Positions 419 through 60,492 of a stretch of DNA of 64,000 nt are shown one piece after another. Made by a program: the position numbers and the translations under genes. Each line of letters starts with the position of its first letter. Within the stretch, counting starts at the first letter, position 1. Location: the NCBI GenBank assembly GCA_964016885.1, contig OZ024740.1, positions 269,452,001 through 269,516,000 of the forward strand, written 5' to 3'. This DNA is from Eledone cirrhosa. Lineage: Eukaryota. The notes under the pieces are model-generated. The model worked only from the letters and a program-made list of their open reading frames with translations. It did not search any database and was not told the DNA's origin.

Positions 419-2300
419 ACTTTGAAATGTTTTGGCCAGTATTGGCCCAGACCATGTCTAACTTAATAGCACCACCTGGCGAAGTCTTTCAATTCAGGAT
501 TTGGGCACCATGGCCCATTCGAGAAGAGAATTACTGTTTGCGGAGACATATCCGGGTGTGGGTGGTTTGTCCGGGATTACTTGGAGGAATTTGTCCAAAG
601 ACTTCTTGAATTTTGTGTGGTCAGTTTCTGTTTTGACGTGTCCTGGTGTGATGTTGAAGAGAGCAGGGCCGATTGAGGTGAAATAATTGTGCCGTATTGT
701 TGTTATGAGTTGCGATTTAGATTTTTGAATGGGACGGATAGCACGGGGCCCAAGCCTTGGGTGTATCTTGAAGGCGATGCCAACATCATTTGGGCAGTGA
801 TGATGGAACATTTTCCACATCATGCAGATAATATAACGCTCACGGCGACGTTGGAGTGAGTAAAGTTTCAGGTTTTCCAATCGACCCCAGTAGTCAAGGT
901 CTGACATGCCATCTATCTTTTTCGTGATTGCCCTTTGAGGAGCTTCAAGTTTCATGATACTTTGTTTCGTGTGGGGAGACCACAGTGGACAACAGTATTC
1001 AAGGTGTGGTCGGGCGAAAGTAGAGAAGAGAAGGATAATGGTGCGGGAATCTCTCGACTGGAAGGTTCTGAGGATCCAGGAACACATTCTGCGGGCCATG
1101 TCAACTTTGCTGCTTATATGCGTGGTCCAGCTTATGTTGCTGTCCACGGTTACTCCCAAGTCTCTGATGTTGTTAGATGCCACGAGAGTTTCCCCGGAGG
1201 GAATTGAGTACGGGAGTTTCAGAGCATCCTCTTTTCCAAAGTGGATCAGTTCGAATTTGTCTTCGTTCAGTAACATGTTGTTCTTTTCTGCCCATTGGGT
1301 AACAGCCAGTAGGTCTGACTGAAGGCTTATCCGGTCATCCACGCCATTGATGACCTTTTGGAGCTTGGAATCATCAGCGAAAATTTTAATGTTGCTGTGT
1401 TTGATGATGTCAGTGATGTCATTAATATAGATGATGAAGAGAAGTGGGCCCAACACAGTGCCTTGTGGGACTCCACTACTGACTTTGGCTGGGCTTGATT
1501 TGACTCCCTCAACTACAACATGTTGGGTTCTGTTTGACAGGAAGCTCTTGATCCACTGCAGCAGCTTTCCAGTGACACCAATATTGGACAGCTTTCTCAG
1601 TAGAATGTTATGATCAACCCTGTCAAAGGCCTTGCTGAAATCAAGGTAGATAACATCAGTGTTGGAACCCTCTCCCAAGGCTCTCAAAATGTCATCAAAG
1701 TGATGCAGTAGTTGCGTCAGGCAATCCCTTCCATTACGGAATCCATGCTGGTTGGAGTTCAGCATATTGTTACTCTCAAGGAAGTGGGTCATTCGCGATC
1801 TCACCACTCGCTCAAATACCTTAATGATATGAGAGGTGAGTGAGATTGGACGGTAATTCACGGCAAGGGATTTGTTTCCCTTTTTGAAAACTGGGACAAC
1901 AGACTGGGATAGAAGGTTTTCTGGCACATATCCAGCATCCAGTGAGTTCCGCCACAGATTGGCAAGAGGAGAAGCAAGTTGGTGTTGACACGCCTTCAAG
2001 ACACAAGCAGGGAACCTATCGGGACCTACTGCTGAATTATGCTTGATTTCCTTTATTGCCGCCAAGACATCAGGGGCGCCAAACGTTATGTCCGATAAGG
2101 TGTAATGGGGAGTAACATCGCCGATACAGCCCAGATCGGCCATATCAGGATTGCTGAAAACAGAGCAGTATTGTTTCTGCAGTATCTCACCCATGGTTTT
2201 AGCATTGTCTTGAAGAGTGCCATTTTCATCAATTAGAGGGCCAACAGTAGAGCCAGTGATTTTGTGTTTTTTTGCAAATGAAAAGAACACTTTGGGATTG
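419..2300 (-). mobile_element. 5'-truncated CR1/L2-type (Jockey superfamily) non-LTR retrotransposon
   Basis: Uninterrupted ~600-aa RT frame (494..~2300, minus) with motifs [42 protein letters not shown] and the CR1/L2-like tail [13 protein letters not shown]. Short 3' UTR at 419-493. Both ends abut (TA)n/TACA. Confidence 0.9.
494..2300 (-). CDS. Partial ORF2 reverse transcriptase of the CR1/L2-type LINE (endonuclease domain lost)
   Basis: The real protein starts at [11 protein letters not shown]; the YI-repeat N-terminus of the 954-aa track ORF is microsatellite read-through. Confidence 0.85.
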
Positions 2301-3362
<1,062 letters not shown>

Positions 3363-5579
3363 ATTGGAATAAATGCTCTGAAATAGCGATATATATGTGA
3401 ATATAGACATAGAATATTCGAAAATATTCTGTATGTTTATAATAAACATTTTGAAGACCTAATCGCTATAGAATAGAATACGTCACGTATTACAATTAGA
3501 TTCTCGACAAAAGCAAGGGAAGTAATCAACGCGTTTCATTCTCGTTAGAAATCATCAGGACTACATATCCAGTGCTTTTATCGAGAATGACACAGCTAGA
3601 GACTTATAGAATACTTAGCTGTGTACAGGAACTGGTTTGAAAGAGCGGTTGCCGGTCCGGCAGAAATTAGAAATTGGAATAAATGCTCTGAAATAGCGAT
3701 ATATATGTGAATATAGACATAGAATATTCGAAAATATTCTGTATGTTTATAATAAACATTTTGAAGACCTAATCGCTATAGAATAGAATACGTCACGTAT
3801 TACAATTAGATTCTCGACAAAAGCAGGGAAGTAATCAACGCGTTTCATTCTCGTTAGAAATCATCAGGACTACATATCCAGTGCTTTTATCGAGAATGAC
3901 ACAGCTAGAGACTTATAGAATACTTAGCTGTGTACAGGAACTGGTTTGAAAGAGCGGTTGCCGGTCCGGCAGAAATTAGAAATTGGAATAAATGCTCTGA
4001 AATAGCGATATATATGTGAATATAGACATAGAATATTCGAAAATATTCTGTATGTTTATAATAAACATTTTGAAGACCTAATCGCTATAGAATAGAATAC
4101 GTCACGTATTACAATTAGATTCTCGACAAAAGCAAGGGAAGTAATCAACGCGTTTCATTCTCGTTAGAAATCATCAGGACTACATATCCAGTGCTTTTAT
4201 CGAGAATGACACAGCTAGAGACTTATAGAATACTTAGCTGTGTACAGGAACTGGTTTGAAAGAGCGGTTGCCGGTCCGGCAGAAATTAGAAATTGGAATA
4301 AATGCTCTGAAATAGCGATATATATGTGAATATAGACATAGAATATTCGAAAATATTCTGTATGTTTATAATAAACATTTTGAAGACCTAATCGCTATAG
4401 AATAGAATACGTCACGTATTACAATTAGATTCTCGACAAAAGCAAGGGAAGTAATCAACGCGTTTCATTCTCGTTAGAAATCATCAGGACTACATATCCA
4501 GTGCTTTTATCGAGAATGACACAGCTAGAGACTTATAGAATACTTAGCTGTGTACAGGAACTGGTTTGAAAGAGCGGTTGCCGGTCCGGCAGAAATTAGA
4601 AATTGGAATAAATGCTCTGAAATAGCGATATATATGTGAATATAGACATAGAATATTCGAAAATATTCTGTATGTTTATAATAAACATTTTGAAGACCTA
4701 ATCGCTATAGAATAGAATACGTCACGTATTACAATTAGATTCTCGACAAAAGCAAGGGAAGTAATCAACGCGTTTCATTCTCGTTAGAAATCATCAGGAC
4801 TACATATCCAGTGCTTTTATCGAGAATGACACAGCTAGAGACTTATAGAATACTTAGCTGTGTACAGGAACTGGTTTGAAAGAGCGGTTGCCGGTCCGGC
4901 AGAAATTAGAAATTGGAATAAATGCTCTGAAATAGCGATATATATGTGAATATAGACATAGAATATTCGAAAATATTCTGTATGTTTATAATAAACATTT
5001 TGAAGACCTAATCGCTATAGAATAGAATACGTCACGTATTACAATTAGATTCTCGACAAAAGCAAGGGAAGTAATCAACGCGTTTCATTCTCGTTAGAAA
5101 TCATCAGGACTACATATCCAGTGCTTTTATCGAGAATGACACAGCTAGAGACTTATAGAATACTTAGCTGTGTACAGGAACTGGTTTGAAAGAGCGGTTG
5201 CCGGTCCGGCAGAAATTAGAAATTGGAATAAATGCTCTGAAATAGCGATATATATGTGAATATAGACATAGAATATTCGAAAATATTCTGTATGTTTATA
5301 ATAAACATTTTGAAGACCTAATCGCTATAGAATAGAATACGTCACGTATTACAATTAGATTCTCGACAAAAGCAAGGGAAGTAATCAACGCGTTTCATTC
5401 TCGTTAGAAATCATCAGGACTACATATCCAGTGCTTTTATCGAGAATGACACAGCTAGAGACTTATAGAATACTTAGCTGTGTACAGGAACTGGTTTGAA
5501 AGAGCGGTTGCCGGTCCGGCAGAAATTAGAAATTGGAATAAATGCTCTGAAATAGCGATATATATGTGAATATAGACAT
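3363..5579 (-). mobile_element. Left arm of the 310-bp hammerhead-containing tandem array (retrozyme-like), ~7.15 copies
   Basis: Unit starts at 3363, 3673, 3982 (after a 1-bp deletion), 4292, 4602, 4912, 5222 and 5532; copies are essentially identical. Confidence 0.9.
3501..3587 (-). ncRNA. Type I hammerhead ribozyme, first of 7 minus-strand copies (others 3811-3896, 4120-4206, 4430-4516, 4740-4826, 5050-5136, 5360-5446)
   Basis: Reverse complement of the fold described at 5809-5895. Confidence 0.85.
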
Positions 5580-7572
5580 CGAGAATCTAATTGTAATACG
5601 TGACGTATTCTATTCTATAGCGATTAGGTCTTCAAAATGTTTATTATAAACATACAGAATATTTTCGAATATTCTATGTCTATATTCACATATATATCGC
5701 TATTTCAGAGCATTTATTCCAATTTCTAATTTCTGCCGGACCGGCAACCGCTCTTTCAAACCAGTTCCTGTACACAGCTAAGTATTCTATAAGTCTCTAG
5801 CTGTGTCATTCTCGATAAAAGCACTGGATATGTAGTCCTGATGATTTCTAACGAGAATGAAACGCGTTGATTACTTCCCTTGCTTTTGTCGAGAATCTAA
5901 TTGTAATACGTGACGTATTCTATTCTATAGCGATTAGGTCTTCAAAATGTTTATTATAAACATACAGAATATTTTCGAATATTCTATGTCTATATTCACA
6001 TATATATCGCTATTTCAGAGCATTTATTCCAATTTCTAATTTCTGCCGGACCGGCAACCGCTCTTTCAAACCAGTTCCTGTACACAGCTAAGTATTCTAT
6101 AAGTCTCTAGCTGTGTCATTCTCGATAAAAGCACTGGATATGTAGTCCTGATGATTTCTAACGAGAATGAAACGCGTTGATTACTTCCCTTGCTTTTGTC
6201 GAGAATCTAATTGTAATACGTGACGTATTCTATTCTATAGCGATTAGGTCTTCAAAATGTTTATTATAAACATACAGAATATTTTCGAATATTCTATGTC
6301 TATATTCACATATATATCGCTATTTCAGAGCATTTATTCCAATTTCTAATTTCTGCCGGACCGGCAACCGCTCTTTCAAACCAGTTCCTGTACACAGCTA
6401 AGTATTCTATAAGTCTCTAGCTGTGTCATTCTCGATAAAAGCACTGGATATGTAGTCCTGATGATTTCTAACGAGAATGAAACGCGTTGATTACTTCCCT
6501 TGCTTTTGTCGAGAATCTAATTGTAATACGTGACGTATTCTATTCTATAGCGATTAGGTCTTCAAAATGTTTATTATAAACATACAGAATATTTTCGAAT
6601 ATTCTATGTCTATATTCACATATATATCGCTATTTCAGAGCATTTATTCCAATTTCTAATTTCTGCCGGACCGGCAACCGCTCTTTCAAACCAGTTCCTG
6701 TACACAGCTAAGTATTCTATAAGTCTCTAGCTGTGTCATTCTCGATAAAAGCACTGGATATGTAGTCCTGATGATTTCTAACGAGAATGAAACGCGTTGA
6801 TTACTTCCCTTGCTTTTGTCGAGAATCTAATTGTAATACGTGACGTATTCTATTCTATAGCGATTAGGTCTTCAAAATGTTTATTATAAACATACAGAAT
6901 TTATTATAAACATACAGAATATTTTCGAATATTCTATGTCTATATTCACATATATATCGCTATTTCAGAGCATTTATTCCAATTTCTAATTTCTGCCGGA
7001 CCGGCAACCGCTCTTTCAAACCAGTTCCTGTACACAGCTAAGTATTCTATAAGTCTCTAGCTGTGTCATTCTCGATAAAAGCACTGGATATGTAGTCCTG
7101 ATGATTTCTAACGAGAATGAAACGCGTTGATTACTTCCCTTGCTTTTGTCGAGAATCTAATTGTAATACGTGACGTATTCTATTCTATAGCGATTAGGTC
7201 TTCAAAATGTTTATTATAAACATACAGAATATTTTCGAATATTCTATGTCTATATTCACATATATATCGCTATTTCAGAGCATTTATTCCAATTTCTAAT
7301 TTCTGCCGGACCGGCAACCGCTCTTTCAAACCAGTTCCTGTACACAGCTAAGTATTCTATAAGTCTCTAGCTGTGTCATTCTCGATAAAAGCACTGGATA
7401 TGTAGTCCTGATGATTTCTAACGAGAATGAAACGCGTTGATTACTTCCCTTGCTTTTGTCGAGAATCTAATTGTAATACGTGACGTATTCTATTCTATAG
7501 CGATTAGGTCTTCAAAATGTTTATTATAAACATACAGAATATTTTCGAATATTCTATGTCTATATTCACATA
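5579..7572 (+). mobile_element. Right arm of the same 310-bp array in inverted orientation, ~6.4 copies
   Basis: Reverse complement of the left-arm monomer. GAGAATCTAA recurs at 5581, 5891, 6201, 6511, 6821, 7151 and 7461; one 20-bp duplication at 6901-6920. Confidence 0.9.
5809..5895 (+). ncRNA. Type I hammerhead ribozyme, first of 6 plus-strand copies (others 6119-6205, 6429-6515, 6739-6825, 7069-7155, 7379-7465)
   Basis: Core CTGATGA (5838-5844) and GAAA (5859-5862). Stem II TTCT-AACG-AGAA; palindromic CGCG in helix III; UU cleavage site (cut after 5868). Stem I GTAGTC/GATTAC is extended by GGA/TCC and a 15-bp helix TTCTCGATAAAAGCA/TGCTTTTGTCGAGAA. Confidence 0.88.
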
Positions 7573-11755
<4,183 letters not shown>

Positions 11756-12387
11756 TCAGATGTTGTTTACTCGAGAGAAGGCTACGTTGGTATGGATGCG
11801 CATGAAAGTCGATAGCTGTATAACAAAGTGCAGGGCAATAAAGATAGACGGTAGTCACGGAATAGGCAGACCTAGAAAAACCTGGGACGAGCTGATAAAC
11901 TCCGACATCACACACTTACACCTCTCCAAGACAATGTCACTGGACCGAGACCTTTGGCGGTACTCAGTAACAGAGAAGACCCGCCTTACCTAAATATATA
12001 GTAAAACCTACTCCAGCCAGTAGGCATCTCTAACAAAATACACCCCGTCCCACCACCACCACCCCCACCCCATCCACACCACCCCGTTCTATCTAAAGTT
12101 ATGTTGGTGCCGCGCCACCCAGGCCGAAACAAATGAGATCGTGTAGGTGTCACGACAAAAAAACACACAGTCCACGCTGTAATGTGGGCGTGTAGGCAAC
12201 ACGGTAAAAACCTCCCAGACCCACACTGTAAATGTGGTTGGTGTTAGGAAGGGCATCCAACTGTAGAAAACCTGCCAGACTGTCCTATGCGAGCAAGACA
12301 ATCACTCTTGCCTCAAGTGGGACTACCCCCGTCCAAACCCATGCAAGCGTGGAACACGGACGTTAAACGTTGATGATGATGATGATG

Positions 12388-12388
<1 letters not shown>
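11756..12388 (+). mobile_element. 5'-truncated RTE LINE (C-terminal coding end, 3' UTR and (GAT)n tail)
   Basis: Near-identical to 14684-15071; encodes GIGRPRKTWDELI; ends ACGTTAAACGTT(GAT)n. Confidence 0.85.
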
Positions 12389-12464
<76 letters not shown>

Positions 12465-12539: not shown

Positions 12540-15071
12540 ACACTAAATCCCTCCCCCATGAATAATGCACCTCCCAACATAGACTGATAATTAGCGACCT
12601 CATAGTCAGGACGAGACGTACTCGACAGCAGAAGAGGACTATCCTCAGGAGAAAAATATGGAAGCTAAAGGACCCCACAGCCAGAAATAAATTTCAAAGC
12701 ATATTACTTGATGCTTTTGACAGTAAGGAAGAACATTTAGAGTCGGACAATATAGAGGGACAGTGGGAATTTCTGAAAGCAAACCTGCTGTTGGCGACAG
12801 ACGAAGTCTGTGGCTGGAGCAGGCCTGTAGGCAGGGGGAGAGTAACATGGTGGTGGAACAGTAACGTGGAGGGGTCAATTAAGGCCAAAAAGCAGGCTTG
12901 GAAAGTATGGCGGGATGGGGGAAGTAGAGTAGACTATCAAGTGGCCAGGAGGGAAGCTAGGAGAGAAGTGTACTTAGCAAGAAGGGAAGCTGAGGAAAGA
13001 AAGTTCAAGCATGTTCTACAACGTGATGACCAAAAACGTGAGGTGTTCAGGATTGCTAGGCAATGCGTCAAGGAAAACCGTGATATTGTCGGGGAGAAGT
13101 GTGTACTTAACGATGATGGCATACTTGCCATCACCGACACTGATAAGAAGGTAGCTTGGAAGTGTCACTATGAAAGGCTACTAAATGAGGAGAATAAATG
13201 GGAGAAAGACAGTCTCCCCCATATCGACCCAATAGAGGGACCAGCAGTGTTAGTCGAGGGGAGTATAGTAAGTTAGGCAATCAAGGATATGAAGACGGGT
13301 AAGGCGGCTGGGCCTTCGGAAATAGTTGCTGAGATGCTGAAGGCATCTGGCACGGTGGGACACATCATGGTCACCCGCATAGTTAACCAAGTCATACAGA
13401 ATGGGGTTGTTCCGAAGGACTGGCATAGCAGCATCATCGTTAACTGTTATAAGGGTAAAGGTGACGCCCTAGATAGGAGTAACTATAGAGGCATTAAATT
13501 AATCGACCAGGTCATGAAGGTCACGGAAAAAGTAATAGCGCAACTAATCAGAAAGAGAATTGACCTAGATGAAATGCAGTTCGGGTTTGTGTCAGGCAAA
13601 AGTACCACAGACGCTCTTTTCATAGTACAACTACAGGAGAAGTACCTAGCTAAAGGTAAACCCCTCTACTTAGCTTTTGTCGACTTGGAGAAAGCCTTCG
13701 ACAGAGTCCCCCGCTCCATTATCTGGTGGGCTCTTAGAAAACTAGGCGTTGACGAATGGCTTGTGAGGGCTATGACGAATGGCTTGTGAGGGCTATACAA
13801 GCCATGTATAAAGAAACAGTCAGCAAGGTTAGAATTAACAACGAATATAGTGAAGAGTTTAGCGTAAAAGTTGGCGTCCATCAGGGCTCTGTTCTCAGCC
13901 CCCTACTATTTATTATTGCCCTTCAGGCTATTACAGAGGAGTTCAAGACAGGCTGCCCATGGGAACTCCTATACGCAGACGACCTGACACTCATAGCGGA
14001 ATCAATGGACGAGCTAGAGAAGAAATTCCAAACATGGAAGCACGGCCTAGAGTCAAAAGGACTTAAAATTAACCTGGCTAAGACCAAAGTTGTAGTTTGT
14101 AGGAAAGAAAACAAGGCGGCGGTCCCTTCTGGGAAATGGTCGTGCTCGGTGTGTAGGAAAGGCGTAGGTAGAAACTCCATTTTATGTCCTAAATGAAAAG
14201 TATGGGTGCATAAAAGATGTAGTGGGATCACAGGTAAGCTAACTAAGAACATAGATTTTACATGTGGCCGGTGTTCTGGTGCAATAAGTAGCAGCAAGTG
14301 CCCACAAAATACCAGCTCTTTCAATTGCGCAGAGGGTTCTATAGAAATAGTGGACAGCTTCCGTTACCTGGGCGATAAAATCAGCAGTGGGGGAGGGTGC
14401 TCTGAAAGTACTGTAGCTAGAGTCAGAACTGGTTGGAAAAAGTTCAGAGAGCTTATACCACTATTAGCTGCTAAAGGGTTCTCCCTAAAAATGAAAGGCA
14501 GGTTGTACAATGCCTGCATACGAACAGCAATGTTGCATGGCAGTGAGACCTGGGCATTGTGTGCAGAGGATATACGCAGACTAGAGAGGAAAGAAGCTTG
14601 CATGCTCCGCTGGATGTGTAACAGTAATATACGTGAACGGCAAAGCAGAAACGAACTAAGGAAAAAATTAGAGATAAGAGGGATCAGATGTTGTTTACTC
14701 GAGAGAAGGCTACGTTGGTATGGACACGTGATGCGCATGAAAGTCGATAGCTGTATAACAAAGTGCAGGGCAATAAAGATAGACGGTAGTCACGGAATAG
14801 GCAGACCTAGAAAAACCTGGGACGAGCTGATAAACTCCGACATCACACACTTACACCTCTCCAAGACAATGTCACTGGACCGAGACCTTTGGCGGTACTC
14901 AGTAACAGAGAAGACCCGCCTTACCTAAATATATAGTAAAACCTACTCCAGCCAGTAGGCATCTCTAACGAAATACACCCCTGTCCCACTACCCCACCCC
15001 ATCCATACCACCCCGTTCTATGTAAAGTTATGTTGGTGCCGCGCCATCCAGGCCGAAACAAATGAGATCGT
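12540..15071 (+). pseudogene. Disrupted RTE-clade LINE ORF (RT, PHD-like finger, C-terminal domain) with truncated 3' UTR
   Basis: Motifs NYRGIKL, DLEKAFDRV, GVHQGSVLSP, YADD, GSETW, GRPRKTW. In-frame stops at 13274 and 14194; 23-bp duplication at 13751-13796. Confidence 0.92.
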
Positions 15072-23533: not shown

Positions 23534-23550
23534 AACACTCCCACACACTC

Positions 23551-23685
23551 ACATGGCTTAGTGGTTAGAGCATTGGGCTTGCAATCGAAAGGTTGTGAGT
23601 TCAATTCTCAGACTGGGTGATGTGTTTCCTTGAGCAAGACACTTTATTTTACATTGCTCCAGTTTACTCAGCTGTAGAAATGAGA
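23551..23685 (+). mobile_element. tRNA-derived SINE head (CORE/V-like)
   Basis: TGGCTTAGTGG A box, GAGTTCAATTC B box, followed by CCTTGAGCAAGACACTT. Confidence 0.65.
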
Positions 23686-50176: not shown

Positions 50177-53100
50177 CTTTCTTTATTAACCACAAGGGTT
50201 TACATGAAGTAGACATTAAGGACAGTACAGGACAATACAGGACGGTACAAATGGTCATTTCTGCGTGTAAAAAAAACAGGATGTAATAAAAATAACAATG
50301 AAAACTTCCCCAATAGGGGGAAGGCTTCCGAAGGACATTTGTGGAGAAAGCCCATTAAAAGGCCACAGTGACCCAGACCACCAGGGCAAGTGCCCTCTCC
50401 CAGTTTTCCACCTTTAATTTAAAGACACATACTCAGAATAGTCCCATTCACTCGGGCCATACTTGCTTCTCTCACCCACCTTTCAACAAAATGCTGGGAA
50501 GACATCACTTCCCTCTCTACCCTGATTTTCCTTTTCAAATGAAATTTGAAAAAGTTAATCAGGGCATCACCGAAGAGGTAAGTGATCGTCTTCAGCCCTT
50601 TCAAACGTGTCCACCATACTATCTCTTTCGCCATGGCCACCAGACAGATAAAAACTGCCTGCCCTTCCCGGCTAGAGGAAGAGGGCGGGGCAATCCTCAC
50701 GATGGACTCAGCTGATAGCTGTATCCGTCCTACACGTAACAGCAGGTGTTCGACATAAACCCACAAGTCAGCAATGCTCGGACACTGGACGAGTGCGTGC
50801 AGGACGGTTTCGTCACCCTGCACGCATCTCGGACATGCCCGGCTGACGGCACCCCCATGCCTGTAGAGTTTATCCCGAACTGGCAAAGCTCCTCGGTAGC
50901 ACCGCCAGGCCAGGGATTTCTGGAAGTTGTCCATAGGCCCCGGCCCGAAAGTCCTTCCTAAGAGATTGGCTAGTTGATTTTCGTCGACGCCTAGAGTTTC
51001 TCCAAGTACGTCGTCGCTCTTCCCCTCCACTAATCCTGTATAGAACGCCAAGGTGGAGTTTCCAACGATCACATTGCCCGATTGGTCGAGGGCTGTGAGC
51101 GCCTGAAGACATTCCAGTCTCCAAGCGCCTCTCTCGGTCTTCGCTTGACCCATGACTGCAGCTCCGTCAAGGGGACGAGCTGGGGAAAGACGCGTCTAGC
51201 AAACGGAGACAACACCTGATCACCGTCGAGGAAGAGGTGGAGATGTCGTAGCCGGAGCGCGTGTCTGCGCATCATCAGCCACGGCATGTCCAGCCCTCCA
51301 CATAGCGGGTGTTGACAGCAGATGGACCGCCTGACCATCGGATCACGTCCCTTCCACAAAAAGCGAAAGAGCAAACGCTCCAGCACAGTCACGCGAGGCT
51401 TAGGACAAGGCCCGATGGTCAGGCGGCAGTAGATGACGGACGCGATGTACGCATTCGCCACCTCCGCTCGACCTTTCAGGGATAGCTTCCTCTCTGCCCA
51501 TTTCTGAGTGAGAGAAGTCACTCTGCTCGTCACCTCGTCCCAGTTTTTGCCCGTCTGGAGGTCCGGACAGAACCAGACCCCTAACAATTTAACCGGTCCG
51601 TCCGTCCAGTGCCCGACGACGCTGTTGGACGGCATGGACATGCCTCTCCAGATGCCGAGCTGCAGGCCCACCGACTTTTCCTGGTTGATCATTGCTCCTG
51701 TCACCGATTCGTATTCTCTTATTGTGGTACTGATCGCCTCAATGTGTTTGGCGTTCGACACCACTACGGTGGCATCGTCCGCATATGCTGACACGGATCT
51801 TCTGCATCCAGTTGGCGCGGAACCCCCCTCAACGTCTCCAGTTTGTGCAGTAATGGCTCGAGAGTCAATACGTACAAGAGGAACGAGAGGGGACATCCTT
51901 GGCGGACCGAGCGCATGATGTTGAACGGTTCCGAAATGTGACCGTTCACTTTCACCACAGAGCAGATGTCGCTGTGCATGGCAGCGATCCAGCCTCTGAA
52001 GACAGGCCCAAAGCCAGCCGCCCTCAGGACTGCCACCAGATAACGATGGTCGACCCTATCGAAAGCTTTCGACTGATCTAAATTGATCAAAGACCCACCC
52101 GTGCCAGGTTCCCTAGCTACACTCTCCACGATGTATCGCATGAGGTGGAGGTTGTCGTGAATCGATCTGTTTCGAATGGCGCATGTTTGCGCCTCTCCCA
52201 CTAGACCACCAACGACAAGCGCCAATCTCTTTGCTAGCACCTTGGCCAAGATCTTGAACTCTGTGTTTAGCAGAGTTATGGGCCTGAAATTATCTATATT
52301 ATCCACCTTGTTCGGATCCTTTCTCAGCAGCGCCACCGCTCCTCTGTTGCCAGATGCAGTAGACGTCCGCCAAGAGGCCTCCAAACAAGTCTGGCATCTG
52401 TACGTAAAGTTCATAAGGCAGACCATCCAAACCAGGCGATTTACCCCTTGTGCAGCCAGTCATTGCCTCCCGTTTCTTCAGCGGCTGTTATCGGCTTTTC
52501 GCAACACTCCGCCTCAGTGGCCGAGATCCACAGCAGTCCGCCGAGGTAGACACTAAAGTCCATCCCTCGATCCTGCCCGCCGCTGCCCCCGAACAGCTGA
52601 GCGAAGTGTCGAGTAGCATGCGCCCGTCGTGGTCCACCAAAAACCGGATCGTTGCTTTGTTGCCACGACACGCTTCCGCCACTCGGGCCCATTGAATGGC
52701 TTTCGTGCCCTCGTGTCTGAGAGCACACACCCCAGCTTTGACAACGCAGCCTTCGTGCTTTGCATTGAAGAATTGATAAAGGGCCAATTTCACCGCAAGT
52801 ACGTCGGTCGCGATGCCTTTGCTAAGCGCCTCGTCCAATTTTCTAACTAGTTCTCCCTCTGCTCTATTTTTATCTATTGCAAAAGCCTTACTAAACCTAA
52901 TGCACTCTATTCTAATCGCTCATTTCAGAGCAAACCACCATTTGTTGTTGACGATGGCCCACTTCAACGCCCGCTTAACTAGTTCGCTAATCCGGTCTCT
53001 GTAGGTCTTGCCCGCTGTTAATGATGCGTTTAGCTTCCAGTAGCCGGGTCTTAGTCTATGAAGCTTATCTAAGTCAAGCTCACAGATCACGAATTTGTGG

Positions 53101-54413
53101 TCCGTGTAGCTGACTATCTTGAATTGTGGACAGCCTATGCTAGACCTATCTATTTCTCTACAAAATACTCTATGTAGATATGATCTGGATGACCCGATAC
53201 GGTTTGTCCAAGTCCACATTGGCACATTCGGGAAATCCAATTGGTACCTGTCAGACAGTTCAAAACGCCTGAGCAGGTTGGTGAGGCTCTTGCACCCTCC
53301 TCCCCTATCCGCTAATCCCACATAGTCCCAGCGTGCATCTAAGATCCCGTTCCAGTCGCCCACTAACACTAAAGAGCGGGACGTTCCAAGAAAGGTCTCC
53401 AGACGCCAGAAGAAATCAAGCCGCCCTGCTCCTGTCGTGGCATAGACGGCCACTAGCCTGAAACCTTGCCCGTCTCCGCTGGTCACGTCCAACACCACCA
53501 ACTTACCTTCTGGATCCAGGAAGATGGCTCGTATGGCGAGATCCAAATCTCTCCGAAAAAGCACAGCACCCCCCTCCTCCTGATCCAAGACGGCTGGGAG
53601 ATGCGTACACATCGTAGCGCTCGAAGATCGGTGCGAAGGCCCGTGCTTCGGAGGTTCTGGTCTCGCTAATGGCCACCACATCTATGTTAGTTGAGCAGGT
53701 GGCGCTGCTTCCATGACGACCCCAGGCCATGCGCATTTGTGCTGCCTATTCTGAGTGAGGTCATGTTGAAAAGGAGTGGAAAAATATGGGAAAGAACACT
53801 TACCTCACTTTTCGTAGGGGGGGGGGGAGTTTTTCCATCCTTCTCACTGCTTGTGGCCTCCTCCGGAAGGATGTCCCTATAAATCCTCCTGGAGAGTGTT
53901 TGTTGGAAGTCTCTGACGTCTTTGGGGAATTTTTGTTTTAGTGTCGTGTACGTTTTCTGTGTGTTGCGAGTGATTTGTATGTGTGGAGGTGGTGTGAATT
54001 TTGGGGGTGTTGTGTAGTCTTTTTCTGTGATGCTGGTGTTGTGTTGGATGTAGTGTAGTAATTGGTTGTTGTTCAAATTTAATTGTTTCTACTTTTGGCA
54101 CAAGGCCAGCAATTATCAGTACATTACTGGTACTTTATTTTATCGACCCCGTAAGGATGAAAGGCAAAGTTGACCTCGGCGGCATTTGAACTCAGAATGG
54201 AAAGGGCCGTAACTCTATGCGTCAAAGCATGACGTCCAACGCTCCACCGATACTGCCATTAATGCTGCGTAGTGTGTATCGTTTTGGTTGTTTTGTTTTG
54301 CTTTGTTTGCGTTTGTTGTGGGTTTGTTTCTGTTTCGCTTTTTGGTGACTTTTGTGGTGTTGGTGATGATGGTGTTGGGATTAATGATGGTGATGGTGTT
54401 GGTGTTTGTGGTG
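50129..54413 (-). pseudogene. Older, frameshifted copy of the L1/Tx1-type element, 5'-truncated within ORF1
   Basis: Colinear with 54727-58700; ORF2 is broken into several frames; AATAAA then an (ATT)n tail at 50129-50175. Confidence 0.92.
54079..54258 (-). mobile_element. Meta-type SINE inserted in the ORF1 remnant of the older Tx1 copy
   Basis: Family core present; TTAAT at both junctions. Confidence 0.8.
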
Positions 54414-54726: not shown

Positions 54727-57700
54727 TTACAGATATATACTCAGAGTCGGCCCATTCACTCGGGCCATTCTTGCTTCTCTCACCCATCTTTCAACAAAAT
54801 GCTGGGAAGAGAGCACTTCCTTCTCTACTCTGATTTTCCTTTTCAAATGAAATTTGAAAAAGTCAATCAGAGCATCACCGAAGAGGTAAGTGCTCGTCTT
54901 CAGCCCTTTCAAACGTGTCCACCATACTATCTCTTTCGCCATGGCCACCAGACAGATAAAAACTGCCTGCCCTTCCCGGCTAAAGGAGGAGGGCGGGGCA
55001 ATCCTCACGATAGACTCAGATGATAGCTGGATCCGTCCTAAACGCGACAGCAGGTGTTCGACATAAACCCACAAGTCAGCAATTTTCGGACACTGGACGA
55101 GTGCGTGCAGGACGGTTTCGTCGCCCTGCGCGCATCTCGGACATGCCCGGCTGACGGCACCTCCATGCCTGTAGAGTTTATCCCGAACTGGCAAGGCTCC
55201 TCGGTAGCACTGCCAGGCCAGAGATTTCTGGAAGTTGTCCATAGGCCCTGGCTCGAAGGTTCTTCCGAAGAGATTGGCTAGTTGATTTTCGTCGACGCCT
55301 AGAGTTTCCCCAAGTACGTCGTCGCTCTTCCCCTCCACTAATCCTCTATAGAACGCCGAGGTGGAGTTTCCACCGATCACATTGCCCGATTGGTCGAGGG
55401 CTGTGAGCGCCTGAAGACATTCCAGTCTCCAGGCGCTCCCTCTCGGTCTTCGCTTGACCCAGGACTGCAGCTCCGTCAAGGAAACGAGCTGGGGAAAAAC
55501 GCGTCTAGCAAACGGCGACCACACCTGATCACCGTCGAGGAAGAGGTGGAGATGTCGTAGCCTGAGCGCGTGCCTGCGCATCATCAGCCACGGCATGCCC
55601 AGCCCTCCACGTAGCGGGTGTTGACAACAGATGGACCGCCTGACCATCGGAGCACGTCCCTTCCACAAAAAGCGAAAGAGCAAACGCTCCAGCGCAGTCA
55701 GGCGAGGCTTAGGACAAGGTACGACGGTTAGGCGGTAGCAGATGACAGACGCGATGTACGCGTTAGCCACCTCCGCTCGACCTTTCAGGGATAGCTTCCT
55801 CTCCGCCCATTTCTGGGTGAGAGAAGCCACCCTGCTCGTCACCTCGTCCCAGTTTTTGTCCGTCTGGAGGTCCGGACCGAACCAGACCCCTAGCAATTTA
55901 ACCGGTCCGTCCGTCCAGCGCCCGACGACGCTGTTGGACGGCATGGACCTGCCTCTCCAGGTGCCGAGCTGCAGGCCCACTGACTTTTCCTGGTTGATCA
56001 TTGCTCCTGTCACCGCTTCGTATTCTCTTAGTGTAGTGCCGATCGCCTCGATGTGTTTGGCGTTCGACACCACTACGGTGACATCGTCCGCATATGCTGA
56101 CACGGATCTTCCGCATCCTAGTTCGCGCGGGACTCCCCTCAACGTCTCCAGTTTGTGCAGTAATGGCTCGAGAGTCAATACGTACAAGAGGGACGAGAGG
56201 GGACATCCTTGGCGGACCGAACGCATGATGTTGAACGGTTCCGACAGGTGACCGTTCACTCTCACCACAGAGCAGATGTCGCTGTGCATGGCAGCGATCC
56301 AGCCTCTGAAGACGGGCCCAAAGCCAGCCGCCCTCAGGACTGCCGCTAGGTAACGATGGTCGACCCTATCGAAAGCTTTCGACTGATCTAAATTGATCAA
56401 GGACCCACCCGTGCCAGGTTCCCTAGCTACCCTCTCTACGATGTATCGCATGAGGTGGAGGTTGTCGTGGATGGATCTGTCGGGAATGGCGCATGTCTGC
56501 GCCTCTCCCACCAGACCACCAACGACAAGCGCCAACCTCTTTGCTAGCACCTTGGCCAAAATCTTAAACTCTGTGTTTAGCAGAGTTATGGGCCGGAAAT
56601 TGTCTATGTTATCCCCCTTGTTCGGATCCTTTCTCAGCAGTGCCACCGCTCCTCGGCTCACAGAACTGGGAATTCTCCCGTTCTGTTGCCAGTTGCAGTA
56701 GACGTCCGCCAAGAGGCCTCCGAACAAGTCTGGCATCTGTACGTAAAGTTCATAGGGCAGACCATCCAAACCAGGCGATTTACCCCTTGTGCAGCCAGTC
56801 ATTGCCTCCCGTACTTCAGCGGCTGTTATCGGCTTTTCGCAACACCTCGCCTCAGTGGCCGAGAGCCGCGGCAGTCCGTCGAGGTAGACACTAAAGTCCA
56901 TCCCTCTACCCGGCCCGCCGCTGCCCCCGAACAGCTGAGCGAAGTGTCGCTGAAAAGCTTCACACATTTGCCCGGGATCGAGTAGCATGCGCCCGTCGTG
57001 GTCCACCAAAGACCGGATCGTGGCTTTGTTGCCACGACGCGCCTCCGCCACTCGGGCCCATTGAACGGCTTTCGTCCCCTCGTGTCTGAGAGCACGCACC
57101 CTAGCTCTGACAACGCAGCCTTCGTGCTTTGCATTGAAGAATTGGTCAAGGGCCAATTTCGCCGCAAGCACGTCGGTCGCAATGCCTTTGCTAAGCGCCT
57201 CGTCTAATTTTCTAACTAGTTCTCCCTCTGCTCTATTTTTCTCTATTGCTAAAGCCTTACTAAACCTAATCGATTCTATTCTAATCGCTCTTTTCAGAGC
57301 AAACCACCACTTGTTGTTGACGATGGCCCCCGTCAACGCCCGCTTAACTAGTTCGCTAATCCGGTCTCTGTAGGCCTTGCGCGCTGGTAAGGACGCGTTT
57401 AGCTTCCAGTAGCCGGGTCCTCGTCTATGAAGCCTATCTAAGTCAAGCACACAGGTCACGAATTTGTGGTCCGTGTAGCTGACTATCTTGAATTGTGGAC
57501 AGCCTATGCTAGACCTATCTATTTCCCTACAAAATACTCTATCTAGATATGATCTGGATGACCCTATGCGGTTTGTCCAAGTCCACATTGGCACATTCGG
57601 GAAATCCAATCGGTACCTGTCAGACAGTTCAAAACGCCTGAGCAGGTTGGTGAGGCTCTTGCACCCTCCACCCCTATCCGCTAATCCCACACAGTCCCAG

Positions 57701-58146
57701 CGTGCATCTAAGATCCCGTTCCAGTCGCCCACTAACACTAAAGAGCGGGACGTTCCAAGAAAGGTCTCCAGACGCCGGAAGAAATCAGGCCGCCCTGCTC
57801 CTGTCGGGGCATAGACGGCCACTAGCCTGAAAGCTTGCCCGTCTCCGCTGGTCACGTCCAGCACCACCAGCTTACCCTCTGGGTCCAGGAAGATGGCCCG
57901 TATGGCGAGATCCAAACCTCTCCGAAAAAGCACAGCAACTCCTCCACCCGATCCAGGACGGCTGGGAGATGCGTACACATCGTAGCCGCCGAAGATCGGT
58001 GCGAAGGCCCGTGCTTCGGAGATTCTGGTCTCGCTGATGGCCACTACATCTATGTTTAGTGACCTGAGGTCGTTGAGCAGGTGACCCTGCTTCCATGACG
58101 ACCCCAAGCCACGCGCATTTATGCTGCCTATTCTGAGTGAGGTCAT
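54727..58146 (-). CDS. ORF2: AP endonuclease, reverse transcriptase and C-terminal zinc-binding domain (1139 aa)
   Basis: NARGL, SET, VYAP, GDWN, SYLDRVF, TDHK (APE); KSPGLDGL, FRPITLLN, DQSKAFD, VRQGCPLS, YADD (RT); CPRC...ETVLHALVQC. Confidence 0.95.
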   Translation of the reverse strand: MTSLRIGSINARGLGSSWKQGHLLNDLRSLNIDVVAISETRISEARAFAPIFGGYDVYASPSRPGSGGGVAVLFRRGLDLAIRAIFLDPEGKLVVLDVTSGDGQAFRLVAVYAPTGAGRPDFFRRLETFLGTSRSLVLVGDWNGILDARWDCVGLADRGGGCKSLTNLLRRFELSDRYRLDFPNVPMWTWTNRIGSSRSYLDRVFCREIDRSSIGCPQFKIVSYTDHKFVTCVLDLDRLHRRGPGYWKLNASLPARKAYRDRISELVKRALTGAIVNNKWWFALKRAIRIESIRFSKALAIEKNRAEGELVRKLDEALSKGIATDVLAAKLALDQFFNAKHEGCVVRARVRALRHEGTKAVQWARVAEARRGNKATIRSLVDHDGRMLLDPGQMCEAFQRHFAQLFGGSGGPGRGMDFSVYLDGLPRLSATEARCCEKPITAAEVREAMTGCTRGKSPGLDGLPYELYVQMPDLFGGLLADVYCNWQQNGRIPSSVSRGAVALLRKDPNKGDNIDNFRPITLLNTEFKILAKVLAKRLALVVGGLVGEAQTCAIPDRSIHDNLHLMRYIVERVAREPGTGGSLINLDQSKAFDRVDHRYLAAVLRAAGFGPVFRGWIAAMHSDICSVVRVNGHLSEPFNIMRSVRQGCPLSSLLYVLTLEPLLHKLETLRGVPRELGCGRSVSAYADDVTVVVSNAKHIEAIGTTLREYEAVTGAMINQEKSVGLQLGTWRGRSMPSNSVVGRWTDGPVKLLGVWFGPDLQTDKNWDEVTSRVASLTQKWAERKLSLKGRAEVANAYIASVICYRLTVVPCPKPRLTALERLLFRFLWKGRAPMVRRSICCQHPLRGGLGMPWLMMRRHALRLRHLHLFLDGDQVWSPFARRVFPQLVSLTELQSWVKRRPRGSAWRLECLQALTALDQSGNVIGGNSTSAFYRGLVEGKSDDVLGETLGVDENQLANLFGRTFEPGPMDNFQKSLAWQCYRGALPVRDKLYRHGGAVSRACPRCAQGDETVLHALVQCPKIADLWVYVEHLLSRLGRIQLSSESIVRIAPPSSFSREGQAVFICLVAMAKEIVWWTRLKGLKTSTYLFGDALIDFFKFHLKRKIRVEKEVLSSQHFVERWVREARMARVNGPTLSIYL

Positions 58147-58181
58147 GTTTAAAATAGAGTGGAAAAGATGGGAAAGACCAC

Positions 58182-60278
58182 TTACCGTACTTTTGGTAGA
58201 GGAGGGATGGTTTTTACATCCCTTTTCACTTGATCGTCTGGTGAAGGGACCGTTGAATCGTCCCTTCGGCTGGTCGTCGGCTCTTCTAAGAGAATGTCTG
58301 AATATACTCTTCGATTAATGGTTCCTCCTAGGTCCCTGAAATCACCAACTGCGTTGGGGAATTTCGTTTTAATGTTTGTGTATTGTTTCTGTGCTATTTT
58401 TAGCAGTCTTATGTTAGTTGGCGTTTTGATTGGTGCTGGTATTATGTAGTCCTGTTGTGAAATGTCTGTGTGTTCAATTATGTAAGTCATTAGTTTCTTG
58501 TTGTGTGTGTTTATTGCCGTGCATTTGTTTTTCTGGGGGTGGGGTGTGGTTCTGCTATTTTCTTGTCGTTGTTGCTGGGTGTGTGTGTTTTGTTGTTGTG
58601 TTTGCGATGTTGGTGCTTGTGGTGGTGGTGTTGAAGGTGTTGTTGGCGGTGGGGTTGTCGCCGGTGGTGATGGTGGTGCTGGTGTGGGTGGTGATGGTGT
58701 TGGTGGTGTTGCTGCTGTGGGTCTCTTTGCAGTAGACTTTACCCTTTTCTCATTTCTTTCCTCCCTTTTCAAAGGCGACGATGCGCTGCTTCTGCGTTTG
58801 TGCCTTCTTGCGACCTTTTGCCATCCCTCTCCCACCTCACACTCCATGTCTGATTCTGTAAGGTCGGGGAGGGGTACCAGCTCCACTCTTTCACTTGTTG
58901 TTGTTGGTGATGTTTGCACTGGAGTCTCTGTTGCAGCTGCATTTGGTATTGCTGTTGTTGTTGTTAATATTTCCACTGCTGCTGCTGTCTTTGATTTCCG
59001 TGGAGTGGGTATGGGTGCCACGGACCTATCGTTCCTGGTTGCCGCTTGTCCTGTTGCTGGTAGCCGTGGAGCCGGATTCGGAAGGAGGGGGGTTTTCTCC
59101 TTTCTCAGGGTCTTCTCGTTGCAGAAGGCCCTGAGGTGAGTCTTCGATCCACAGCGAAAGCATTTCGGGCGTTTGCCCTCAACACTTATGGGCAGTTGAG
59201 TGCCGTTATCGAAGTCTATCACATCCGGGATAGCTTCGATGCACTCCTGGTTGGTTTGGATTAGCATCTCAATGGAGGAGCCGACCCAATCTTCTCTTAC
59301 TTTTTTCTGTACTTGCAGTACAGTTGTTTTGTCCTCGATTCCGACGAGGACAGACGCGGCCAGCCAAGAAGGGGTCATTCCGGGGGGGACGTGGGTCAGT
59401 TTGACCCTCACAATTTTTTGCCCGCAGTAGGAGGGCACCAACACCATTTCCTCGCTCCTTAGGGTCACTACTGATTGGGCCTTTGCCTCCTGGGGTGTGG
59501 CAAAAAGTACGTCTACGGTGGCGTATTTTTTGCCTCGGGTGATGTGCGTTTTCCTCTGCCACACAGACCCCAAGGCTTTTTGTATTTGGGCCTCTGTGGC
59601 TCTTTCCACCCTACGGGATTTTGCACTTACTGTACGGTACGTGACCGTACAGTGCTCTTGGGTTTCGAAAAAATTTTTCGCTGCCTTGCAGATTGCTCGG
59701 TGTCCGTTCTTTGTCACCATCTTCTTCGCTTCCTCTAATTCCTCATTTGTTATGAGGATTGTTTCCAAGTTTTTCGCAATACCTGCAAATGAGATTGGTT
59801 TTTCTCTGCTGTTGTTGTTGTCGTCAGAGCTGCTGGTACTTTTGTTGTTGCTGCAGGTACTACGACTACTGCCTCCGCCGCTGTTGCTGTGGTTGTTGTT
59901 GGTGTTGCTGCTGCTAATGCTGTTGTTGTTTATGCTGCTGGTGATGCTGTTGCGGCTGCTACTGTTGTTTTCATTGTCACTGTTGCTGTTGTTATTACGG
60001 CTGCTACTGCTATTATTCCTGACGTCAGACGAATGAACTGGGTTTTCGTATTTCCCGCACACCTGTTTCGTCGCTGTCGTCGTCGTCGTGGTGAAACCTT
60101 GCACGCTTTGCACGAGACTTTTCTTTTCTTTCGTCACTTGCGAAAGAGAAGGGAGGGAGAGAGACACATTTAAAGAAGGGAGGGAGAGAGACAATCTTCT
60201 CTCTGCTGTAGTGATGATTGAGGAAGAAGAAGACGGAATGAGTGGGAGTGACGTATGAAATTTCATTTTCGTAGCCAT
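58182..60278 (-). CDS. ORF1: gag-like nucleic-acid-binding protein with one CCHC zinc knuckle (698 aa)
   Basis: CFRCGSKTHLRAFC knuckle, Asn/Ser-rich N-terminus and Pro/Thr-rich C-terminus; ends 35 nt upstream of the ORF2 start. Confidence 0.88.
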   Translation of the reverse strand: MATKMKFHTSLPLIPSSSSSIITTAERRLSLSLPSLNVSLSLPSLSQVTKEKKSLVQSVQGFTTTTTTATKQVCGKYENPVHSSDVRNNSSSSRNNNSNSDNENNSSSRNSITSSINNNSISSSNTNNNHSNSGGGSSRSTCSNNKSTSSSDDNNNSREKPISFAGIAKNLETILITNEELEEAKKMVTKNGHRAICKAAKNFFETQEHCTVTYRTVSAKSRRVERATEAQIQKALGSVWQRKTHITRGKKYATVDVLFATPQEAKAQSVVTLRSEEMVLVPSYCGQKIVRVKLTHVPPGMTPSWLAASVLVGIEDKTTVLQVQKKVREDWVGSSIEMLIQTNQECIEAIPDVIDFDNGTQLPISVEGKRPKCFRCGSKTHLRAFCNEKTLRKEKTPLLPNPAPRLPATGQAATRNDRSVAPIPTPRKSKTAAAVEILTTTTAIPNAAATETPVQTSPTTTSERVELVPLPDLTESDMECEVGEGWQKVARRHKRRSSASSPLKREERNEKRVKSTAKRPTAATPPTPSPPTPAPPSPPATTPPPTTPSTPPPQAPTSQTQQQNTHTQQQRQENSRTTPHPQKNKCTAINTHNKKLMTYIIEHTDISQQDYIIPAPIKTPTNIRLLKIAQKQYTNIKTKFPNAVGDFRDLGGTINRRVYSDILLEEPTTSRRDDSTVPSPDDQVKRDVKTIPPLPKVR

Positions 60279-60492
60279 GTTGTTTTTTGTTTAAAATGAA
60301 TATTGGGTACAAAACCCCAATAACTGGTTATTTAACCCCGAAGGGCCAAATAACGGACAGAAAGACCCCTCTCACGAGGAGGAGGGTGTCTTTATCAACA
60401 ATTTGGTTCAAGTTTTAAACAATTTACAATTGTTTTAACGGTTAAAAATTACTATACCTTACAGAGCCGAGCCTCCGTCAACCATGGCATTC

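Follow-up and report, generated by a model that had tools for sequence, protein, structure and literature searches.

Positions 3363-7572 of the window (the whole 64,000-nt stretch of Eledone cirrhosa DNA analysed here) are occupied by a 310-nt repeat that is arranged as two head-to-head chains joined at 5579. The copy numbers obtained with TRF are 7.2 and 6.4 of the 310-nt unit. Monomer positions are counted from window position 5869 (position 1), which is the first base 3' of the predicted cleavage site. The following features could be placed at the locus:

2301-3364, no strand: left (TA)n/TACA tract, the target (TRF and polarity count)
3354-3364, plus: left copy of a likely 11-12-nt target-site duplication (11-mer common to both flanks)
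3365-5579, minus: left arm, about 7.1 units, ribozyme-sense on the minus strand (target duplication set aside; raw extent 3363-5579)
3528, 3837, 4147, 4457, 4767, 5077 and 5387, minus: hammerhead copies
about 3825, minus: 1-nt deletion in one unit, left arm only
5579, no strand: inversion join, 1-nt overlap (T5579), monomer 118 against monomer 21, arms out of register
5579-7570, plus: right arm, about 6.4 units, ribozyme-sense on the plus strand (raw extent 5579-7572)
5832-5874, plus: first plus-strand type I hammerhead, read from the sequence, predicted cut after 5868
5832-5837 with 5869-5874, plus: its stem I
5838-5844, plus: its core
5845-5858, plus: its stem II
5859-5862, plus: its GAAA
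5862-5867, plus: its stem III, self-complementary, 6 nt
5853-5868 (first unit), plus: locus-wide variants 295G and 310T, in all 13 hammerheads of both arms
after 6178, 6488, 6798, 7128 and 7438, plus: further predicted cuts
6880-6920, plus: 20-nt tandem duplication in one unit, right arm only
7571-11756, no strand: right (TA)n/TACA tract (TRF and polarity count)
7571-7581, plus: right copy of the likely target-site duplication (same 11-mer)

Once the likely target duplication is set aside, the element spans approximately 3365-7570. In monomer coordinates, the left arm has its outer end at 163-165 (the 'tail' end, B) and its inner end at 118, and the right arm lies between an outer end at 130-134 (the short end, A) and an inner end at 21. 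The initial annotation had described an array that flips its orientation midway, minus on the left and plus on the right, and the arm coordinates and hammerhead strands confirm this. They also agree with the out-of-register join that it had placed at 5579, where T5579 is the only base common to both arms. The seven minus-strand and six plus-strand hammerhead cores include none at an array end or at the join; the ends and the junction thus lie away from the cleavage site, as had been stated. The flanking TACA tracts were likewise correctly described as keeping the same polarity on both sides (TACA/TGTA counts of 91/0 on the left and 255/9 on the right). The two arms are not mirror copies, since the deletion near 3825 and the duplication at 6880-6920 are each confined to one of them.

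All 13 units contain the hammerhead core, stems I and II and a palindromic stem III. A search with Rfam at gathering thresholds found no ribozyme in the array, and the alignment to the HH9 model was weak (15.4 bits, E 0.49, below gathering). Hammerheads with a weak stem III are described as working in dimers (PMC7761336). Self-cleavage of the repeat RNA is predicted from the motif; because of 310T, the triplet at this locus would be GUU, as opposed to GUA in the rest of the repeat family. The monomer of 310 nt has a GC content of about 0.34. There is no long ORF inside the array and no ORF with RT plus GIY-YIG in the unit.

These properties resemble those reported for non-LTR retrozymes, namely a non-coding tandem unit of 150-450 nt with a type I hammerhead and less than 50% GC, many dispersed loci and target duplications longer than 4 nt. 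By its DNA sequence the repeat is a known kind of element, with a two-armed, two-site insertion footprint. For metazoan non-LTR retrozymes, multimeric cDNA made from a circle and mobilisation by Penelope-like elements (PLEs) have been proposed (PMC7229834; PMC7761336; bioRxiv 10.64898/2026.07.22.740005). In the accessible text of these sources they are described as tandem arrays only, whereas most insertions here are two-armed and have two fixed ends. The word 'inverted' is absent from the accessible text of PMC7229834 and 'tail' from that of bioRxiv 10.64898/2026.07.22.740005, and two-armed retrozyme insertions that carry a single tail were not found described in the main texts searched, as far as these were accessible.

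The core of the 310-nt repeat has 15,007 exact matches genome-wide. Exact ends at position 130 that run into TA occur 715 times, and ends at 163-172 have 776 forward-strand matches. Our survey comprised 122 fetched stretches, of which 38 were chosen blind to their ends (22 best BLAST hits and 16 consecutive hammerhead loci, same contig as the window) and the remaining 84 were picked through end patterns. The first set, with the window included, held 54 two-arm insertions among 66 segments; the remainder consisted of seven single arms, one double inversion, one segment at a gap, one at an edge and one insertion split into two segments by a 272-nt insert. The fresh set contributed 57 two-arm rows out of 63, and 12 of the 16 consecutive hammerhead loci were two-armed. 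Every simple inversion in the survey runs minus-then-plus. L194.1 (a tandem duplicate), L187.1 (a fragment) and the two loci L031.0 and L037, which an edge or a gap interrupts, were left out of the pooled set, which then contained 107 joins, 103 of them with both outer ends. About 100 young insertions of the family were examined, and their total is probably over a thousand.

The outer ends fall into two groups, A at 125-139 (mode 130) and B at 156-172 (mode 165). One A and one B end were present in 100 of the 103 complete insertions; the exceptions are one B/B element and two with an end outside both bins, and there was no A/A element. A choice of loci by A-end patterns under-represents B/B elements, whereas A/A elements are not selected against. 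Among the end-blind loci, the pairing holds for 30 of 32 insertions (Fisher p 7e-8). The two start sites are approximately 35 bases apart (about 130 and 165 past the predicted cleavage site). Outer ends at two fixed sites, one per arm, correspond to the 'tail' pattern of Penelope elements. They do not support the earlier suggestion that priming took place at chance AT-rich spots and left permuted ends. A survey of other loci for circular permutation had been proposed as a check; the result that would have refuted the model was obtained only by half, with outer ends that are fixed and inner ends that are scattered. Base-pairing strength was considered as the main priming rule and rejected: an 8-nt AU run at 134-139 pairs better, yet only 8 of the A ends in the 30 end-blind A/B loci are found there, while 17 are at 130.

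Inner ends occur all round the unit (KS p 0.14). Over 89 joins, the arms overlap by 2.46 nt on average, compared with 0.75 nt for random joins, which supports the proposal that the head-to-head arms were joined by microhomology. This microhomology ranges from 0 to 8 nt, and 18 joins have short inserts instead; the script used for the first set tolerated both alleles at position 20, so that a few overlaps, that of the 5579 join included, came out one base longer. Inner ends at first seemed to avoid the surroundings of the cleavage site (0/104), but this gap disappeared in the fresh loci (10/110, 10.3 expected), and an excess at monomer positions 11-23 replicated weakly (9 against 4.6, p 0.04). 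Only two of the 107 joins are exact mirrors; 12 are symmetric to within 10 nt (7.2 expected, p 0.06). The lengths of the two arms are weakly correlated (rho 0.21, p 0.036) and lie within one unit of each other in 28 of 100 insertions. Lock-step arm lengths were not found among these 100, and the weak correlation argues against two enzymes moving in step on one circle. The A arm was the longer one in 23 of 50 cases.

The element was originally read as a real insertion into (TA)n, and this is upheld; (TA)n targets recur across the family (TA-like flanks at 95 of 106 ends). At the locus itself the 11-mer common to both flanks is a likely target duplication, although it begins at about 10-12% of the TA-phase positions in these tracts. 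At informative loci, where the flanks break the TA pattern, a duplication was present in 7 of 9 cases compared with 6 of 72 shuffled-pair controls, and by our reading all of these fit a length of 11-12 nt. The fresh loci yielded no informative target duplications. LINE fragments adjoin the tract.

To what extent the arms descend from one RNA can be judged from their haplotypes. Among 87 loci with both arms of at least 300 nt, 85 carry the same haplotype in both, compared with 11.6% across loci. The haplotype of the locus in the window is nearly private: a 22-mer with 295G and 310T has 14 exact matches genome-wide, 13 of which are here. A shared arm haplotype that is almost confined to one locus favours one monomeric circle as template. 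Similarly, in the 107-locus variant set (two old copies out, two cut loci in), 18 variants seen in one sampled two-arm locus only were fixed in both arms, in 17 loci, and 140 single-unit variants in 1,069 units had remained unspread. Together these argue against fast homogenisation after insertion and for a bottleneck of one unit. The L177 variant has 22 matches genome-wide, 20 of them in L177, and that of L160 has 29, of which 18 are in L160 (the full haplotype was present in none of six other places examined, out of seven); the L191 variant marks a widespread sub-lineage with 114 matches. For three of the four haplotypes checked genome-wide (this locus, L160 and L177), a possible parent array is thus absent from the single assembly searched, from which a homogeneous parent could be missing.

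Other loci point towards multimers. In five of the 107 (L032, L123, L140, L150 and L172), a unit-level mosaic is common to both arms, which a monomer circle cannot yield; it would require a multimer template or conversion between arms. In L140 and L150 the mosaics of the two arms keep register when counted from the outer ends, and in L150 the same haplotype switch lies two units from both of them. Repeated multi-unit blocks in L201/L202, L123 and L197 indicate local expansion after insertion, so the number of units need not equal the number of copying rounds. We think it rather probable that a monomer circle is the usual template, and the data would fit equally well if the circle were first copied into multimer RNA; that multimers fill this role as a rule appears unlikely, but a minority of insertions likely use uncleaved ones. 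The circular template of the initial annotation is probably right; it is favoured by the shared, near-private haplotype and opposed by the five cross-arm mosaic loci. Its estimate of 6-7 rounds on the circle for each arm is plausible, but it is weakened by the local duplication of arrays and the loci that point to multimer templates.

The closest parallel to this architecture is provided by PLEs, whose often inverted ends had been mentioned in the initial annotation; the A/B one-tail rule and the head-to-head arms match PLE copies. These are often accompanied by a 5'-truncated copy in inverted orientation, with a tail of 30-40 nt confined to one of the two ends, and (TA)n targets are favoured by some clades (PMC8557442). 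Rotifer PLEs are head-to-head with a one-end tail and 8-10-nt duplications (PMC3846280). How such inverted, one-tailed insertions form is described as undefined (PMC8557442). Purified PLE protein cuts both strands of the target, extends each of them and uses two internal RNA start sites, whose distance equals the 30-40-nt genomic tail; a dimer was predicted (PMC11167929). Like PLEs, the Eledone repeat has a head-to-head inversion, one end that is longer by 30-40 nt, targets that are AT-rich or (TA)n, duplications close to 10 nt in length and a hammerhead upstream of the start sites. It differs in being a 310-nt repeat devoid of an ORF, in that both arms are multimers of the terminal unit, in having start sites at +130 and +165 from the cut and in joins that are not palindromic. 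Priming from both strands is known in vitro for the PLE and is proposed here from the layout of the sequence.

GIY-YIG matches are abundant in the genome (10,596 candidates). Among the 48 GIY-YIG loci screened, no autonomous partner could be recognised by sequence. Repeat matches beside PLEs were considered as partner evidence and discarded, as they belong to other hammerhead repeat families. In one RT+GIY-YIG family (L084/L088/L096), whose copies are mostly 92-98% identical to one another, a hammerhead precedes ends at about +124 and past +160, and the member L096 is inverted with one end of each kind. In an alignment of this family to the monomer, 42 of 500 shuffles aligned as well, so there is no significant match, and by this analysis the family is a parallel and not an identified partner.

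Taken as a whole, we regard it as probable, with moderate confidence, that a non-coding 310-nt hammerhead repeat of the non-LTR retrozyme kind was inserted at the locus once and recently, and that a PLE endonuclease and RT wrote it into (TA)n by priming from both cut strands at two fixed RNA sites, probably while copying one monomeric circle for several rounds. Tandem transcripts would cleave themselves, probably via dimeric hammerheads, and be ligated to circles. A PLE protein, perhaps as a dimer, may bind the +60 to +170 region and nick both DNA strands about 11-12 nt apart, which would leave two 3' overhangs. Site A (about 130) would serve one overhang as its priming site and site B (163-172) the other; both cDNAs could then extend with strand displacement and stop at scattered points, after which their 3' ends would be joined and the second strands filled in. 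A more specific version is that an RT dimer loads both ends of one staggered cut on the two fixed sites of a single ribozyme-made circle, with both subunits rolling. This we put forward tentatively, at slightly less than even confidence. If it is true, every insertion preserves one RNA molecule as a clonal record, and asymmetric two-ended priming accounts for the Penelope tail and inversion.

The idea that both target strands acted as primers, already present in the initial annotation, is supported by the two-site pairing and its in vitro counterpart (PMC11167929). The PLE explanation as a whole draws on the near-universal A/B pairing without any A/A element, in the end-blind subset as well, on the in vitro start sites, on the one-end tails and head-to-head copies of known PLEs (PMC8557442; PMC3846280) and on the RT+GIY-YIG family with its similar end spacing and inverted L096. 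The duplications at informative loci, the overlap at joins, the agreement of arm haplotypes, the fixed private variants and the three parentless haplotypes add to this. Against it stand the five cross-arm mosaic loci, the widespread L191 haplotype, the seven single-armed segments among the 66 of the first set, local array expansion and the lack of a significant match between the RT+GIY-YIG family and the monomer. Moreover, the PLE protein took uncleaved RNA in vitro and the ribozyme was dispensable (PMC11167929).

This last point, that unprocessed RNA was the main substrate in vitro, also favours two-ended PLE priming on uncleaved linear (or circular) multimer transcripts, with arrays kept long by unequal crossing-over. 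The in-register mosaics of L140 and L150 among the 5/107 mosaic loci and the repeated multi-unit blocks fit this alternative, as does the local amplification proposed in the array model of bioRxiv 10.64898/2026.07.22.740005. However, about 40 shared single-unit variants would then be expected as an upper bound (0.131 variants per unit in 314 shorter-arm units, for templates as mutated as today's arrays) and three were seen; three of the four haplotypes also have no parent array. We therefore consider it unlikely. Identical haplotypes in both arms would equally result from a single priming followed by snap-back self-priming or by a template switch onto new cDNA or an antisense template, the last of which has been proposed for rotifer PLEs (PMC3846280), and near-symmetric joins are indeed slightly in excess. 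Exact mirror joins are nevertheless rare, either arm may be the longer one, the second arm ends at the other fixed site instead of the same one, and most single-unit variants are confined to one arm (42 such variants in the overlap). The A/B pairing largely refutes this possibility, which is very improbable.

The comparison with L1 twin priming made in the initial annotation did not hold up. In L1, both nicks prime cDNA, and the inverted pieces, which are flanked by target duplications, are connected through microhomology or end joining (PMC2837659). The repeat would share the priming from both nicks and shows the same head-to-head layout inside a likely duplication with microhomology at the join; the LINE fragments adjoining the tract could be taken to point to a LINE enzyme. 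However, poly(A) is absent, the two ends are internal start sites at fixed positions, and inversion is the rule. L1 pieces are adjacent parts of one mRNA, whereas the two cDNAs here cover overlapping repeated sequence; only 12 of 200 inner ends are within 10 nt of the point where the other arm starts (13.5 expected). We give hardly any weight to an L1/LINE-type origin. A fold-back chimera or misassembly has next to no probability: assembly is difficult across long AT tracts and inverted repeats and the 5579 join is known from the assembly alone, but the arms are not mirror images, since they differ in their ends and in indels that only one of them has, polarity is retained in the flanks, and the same rule is followed at about 100 loci with different joins.

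The family follows a strict rule: each insertion has one arm per start site, and both arms have the same RNA haplotype. The two start sites that the PLE uses in vitro are thereby linked to the two DNA strands. That retrozyme circles are copied by a rolling-circle process has so far been a proposal (PMC7229834, PMC7761336); the 310-nt repeat offers a substrate for a direct test and makes both this model and models of PLE inversion testable. Our results also suggest that many ribozyme 'satellite' arrays are long from the start, being deposited in a single step, and do not grow only via later crossing-over. Two other public sequence records carry the repeat only as a collapsed 340-nt unit.

Mosaics of repeat units that are common to both arms were found in five of the insertions fetched from the same genome (L150, L140, L032, L123 and L172). 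L150 makes the clearest case for a single multimeric template on which two primings took place within one unit. Among other insertions, L194 contains the entire two-arm insertion as a tandem duplicate, L117 displays a double inversion, and the arms of L124 are separated by 272 unrelated bases.

Four of the five single-arm insertions chosen without regard to their ends (L045, L100, L109, L112 and L111) end at site A, the arm end near position 130 of the 310-nt monomer. This hints that priming at site A may precede priming at site B (the tail end, near 165). When the joins were pooled, the inner ends were mildly over-represented at monomer positions 11–23, a short way past the predicted cleavage site. 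The right arm of the window array begins inside this interval, and the excess falls in a long-range stem in which positions 13–28 are paired with 250–265.

We also noticed two further hammerhead repeats. A sister repeat is 75–78% identical to monomer positions 59–165, and in L052 it has an inverted arrangement with one arm tailed.

Copies of the sister hammerhead repeat (identity to monomer 59–165)
L052, 2440–2870
L095, 8963–9115
L081, 66–223

A third repeat (L083, L086, L090 and L097) shows 74% identity over monomer positions 226–305, and its stem II is almost identical to that of the 310-nt family.

The window contains several LINE sequences and one weak tRNA match, which is possibly the head of a SINE.

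LINE sequences and tRNA match in the window
419–2300, minus strand, fragment of a LINE-type reverse transcriptase (E 8.6e-32 for RVT_1)
11757–12390 and 12540–14930, plus strand, second LINE in pieces (ORFs), presumably RTE-like
54727–60290 and 50419–53681, minus strand, LINE whose open frames span 1,195 and 702 codons, with a broken second copy adjoining it (ORFs), which we take to be Tx1/L1-like
23547–23619, plus strand, weak tRNA match (36.1 bits)

The reverse transcriptase fragment adjoins the array and is flanked by two TA tracts. The second LINE is interrupted by a TA tract. Within the right microsatellite, sequence inspection revealed short non-TA islets at 9297–11680 that recur three and two times, suggesting kilobase duplications inside this tract.

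Finally, 0.58–0.79 of the words of window positions 5300–5900 were present in 20 public sequencing runs (17 studies, 18 organism codes), and both of the runs that were aligned contained a collapsed 340-nt unit. Related species, diet or cross-contamination may be the source of these words.
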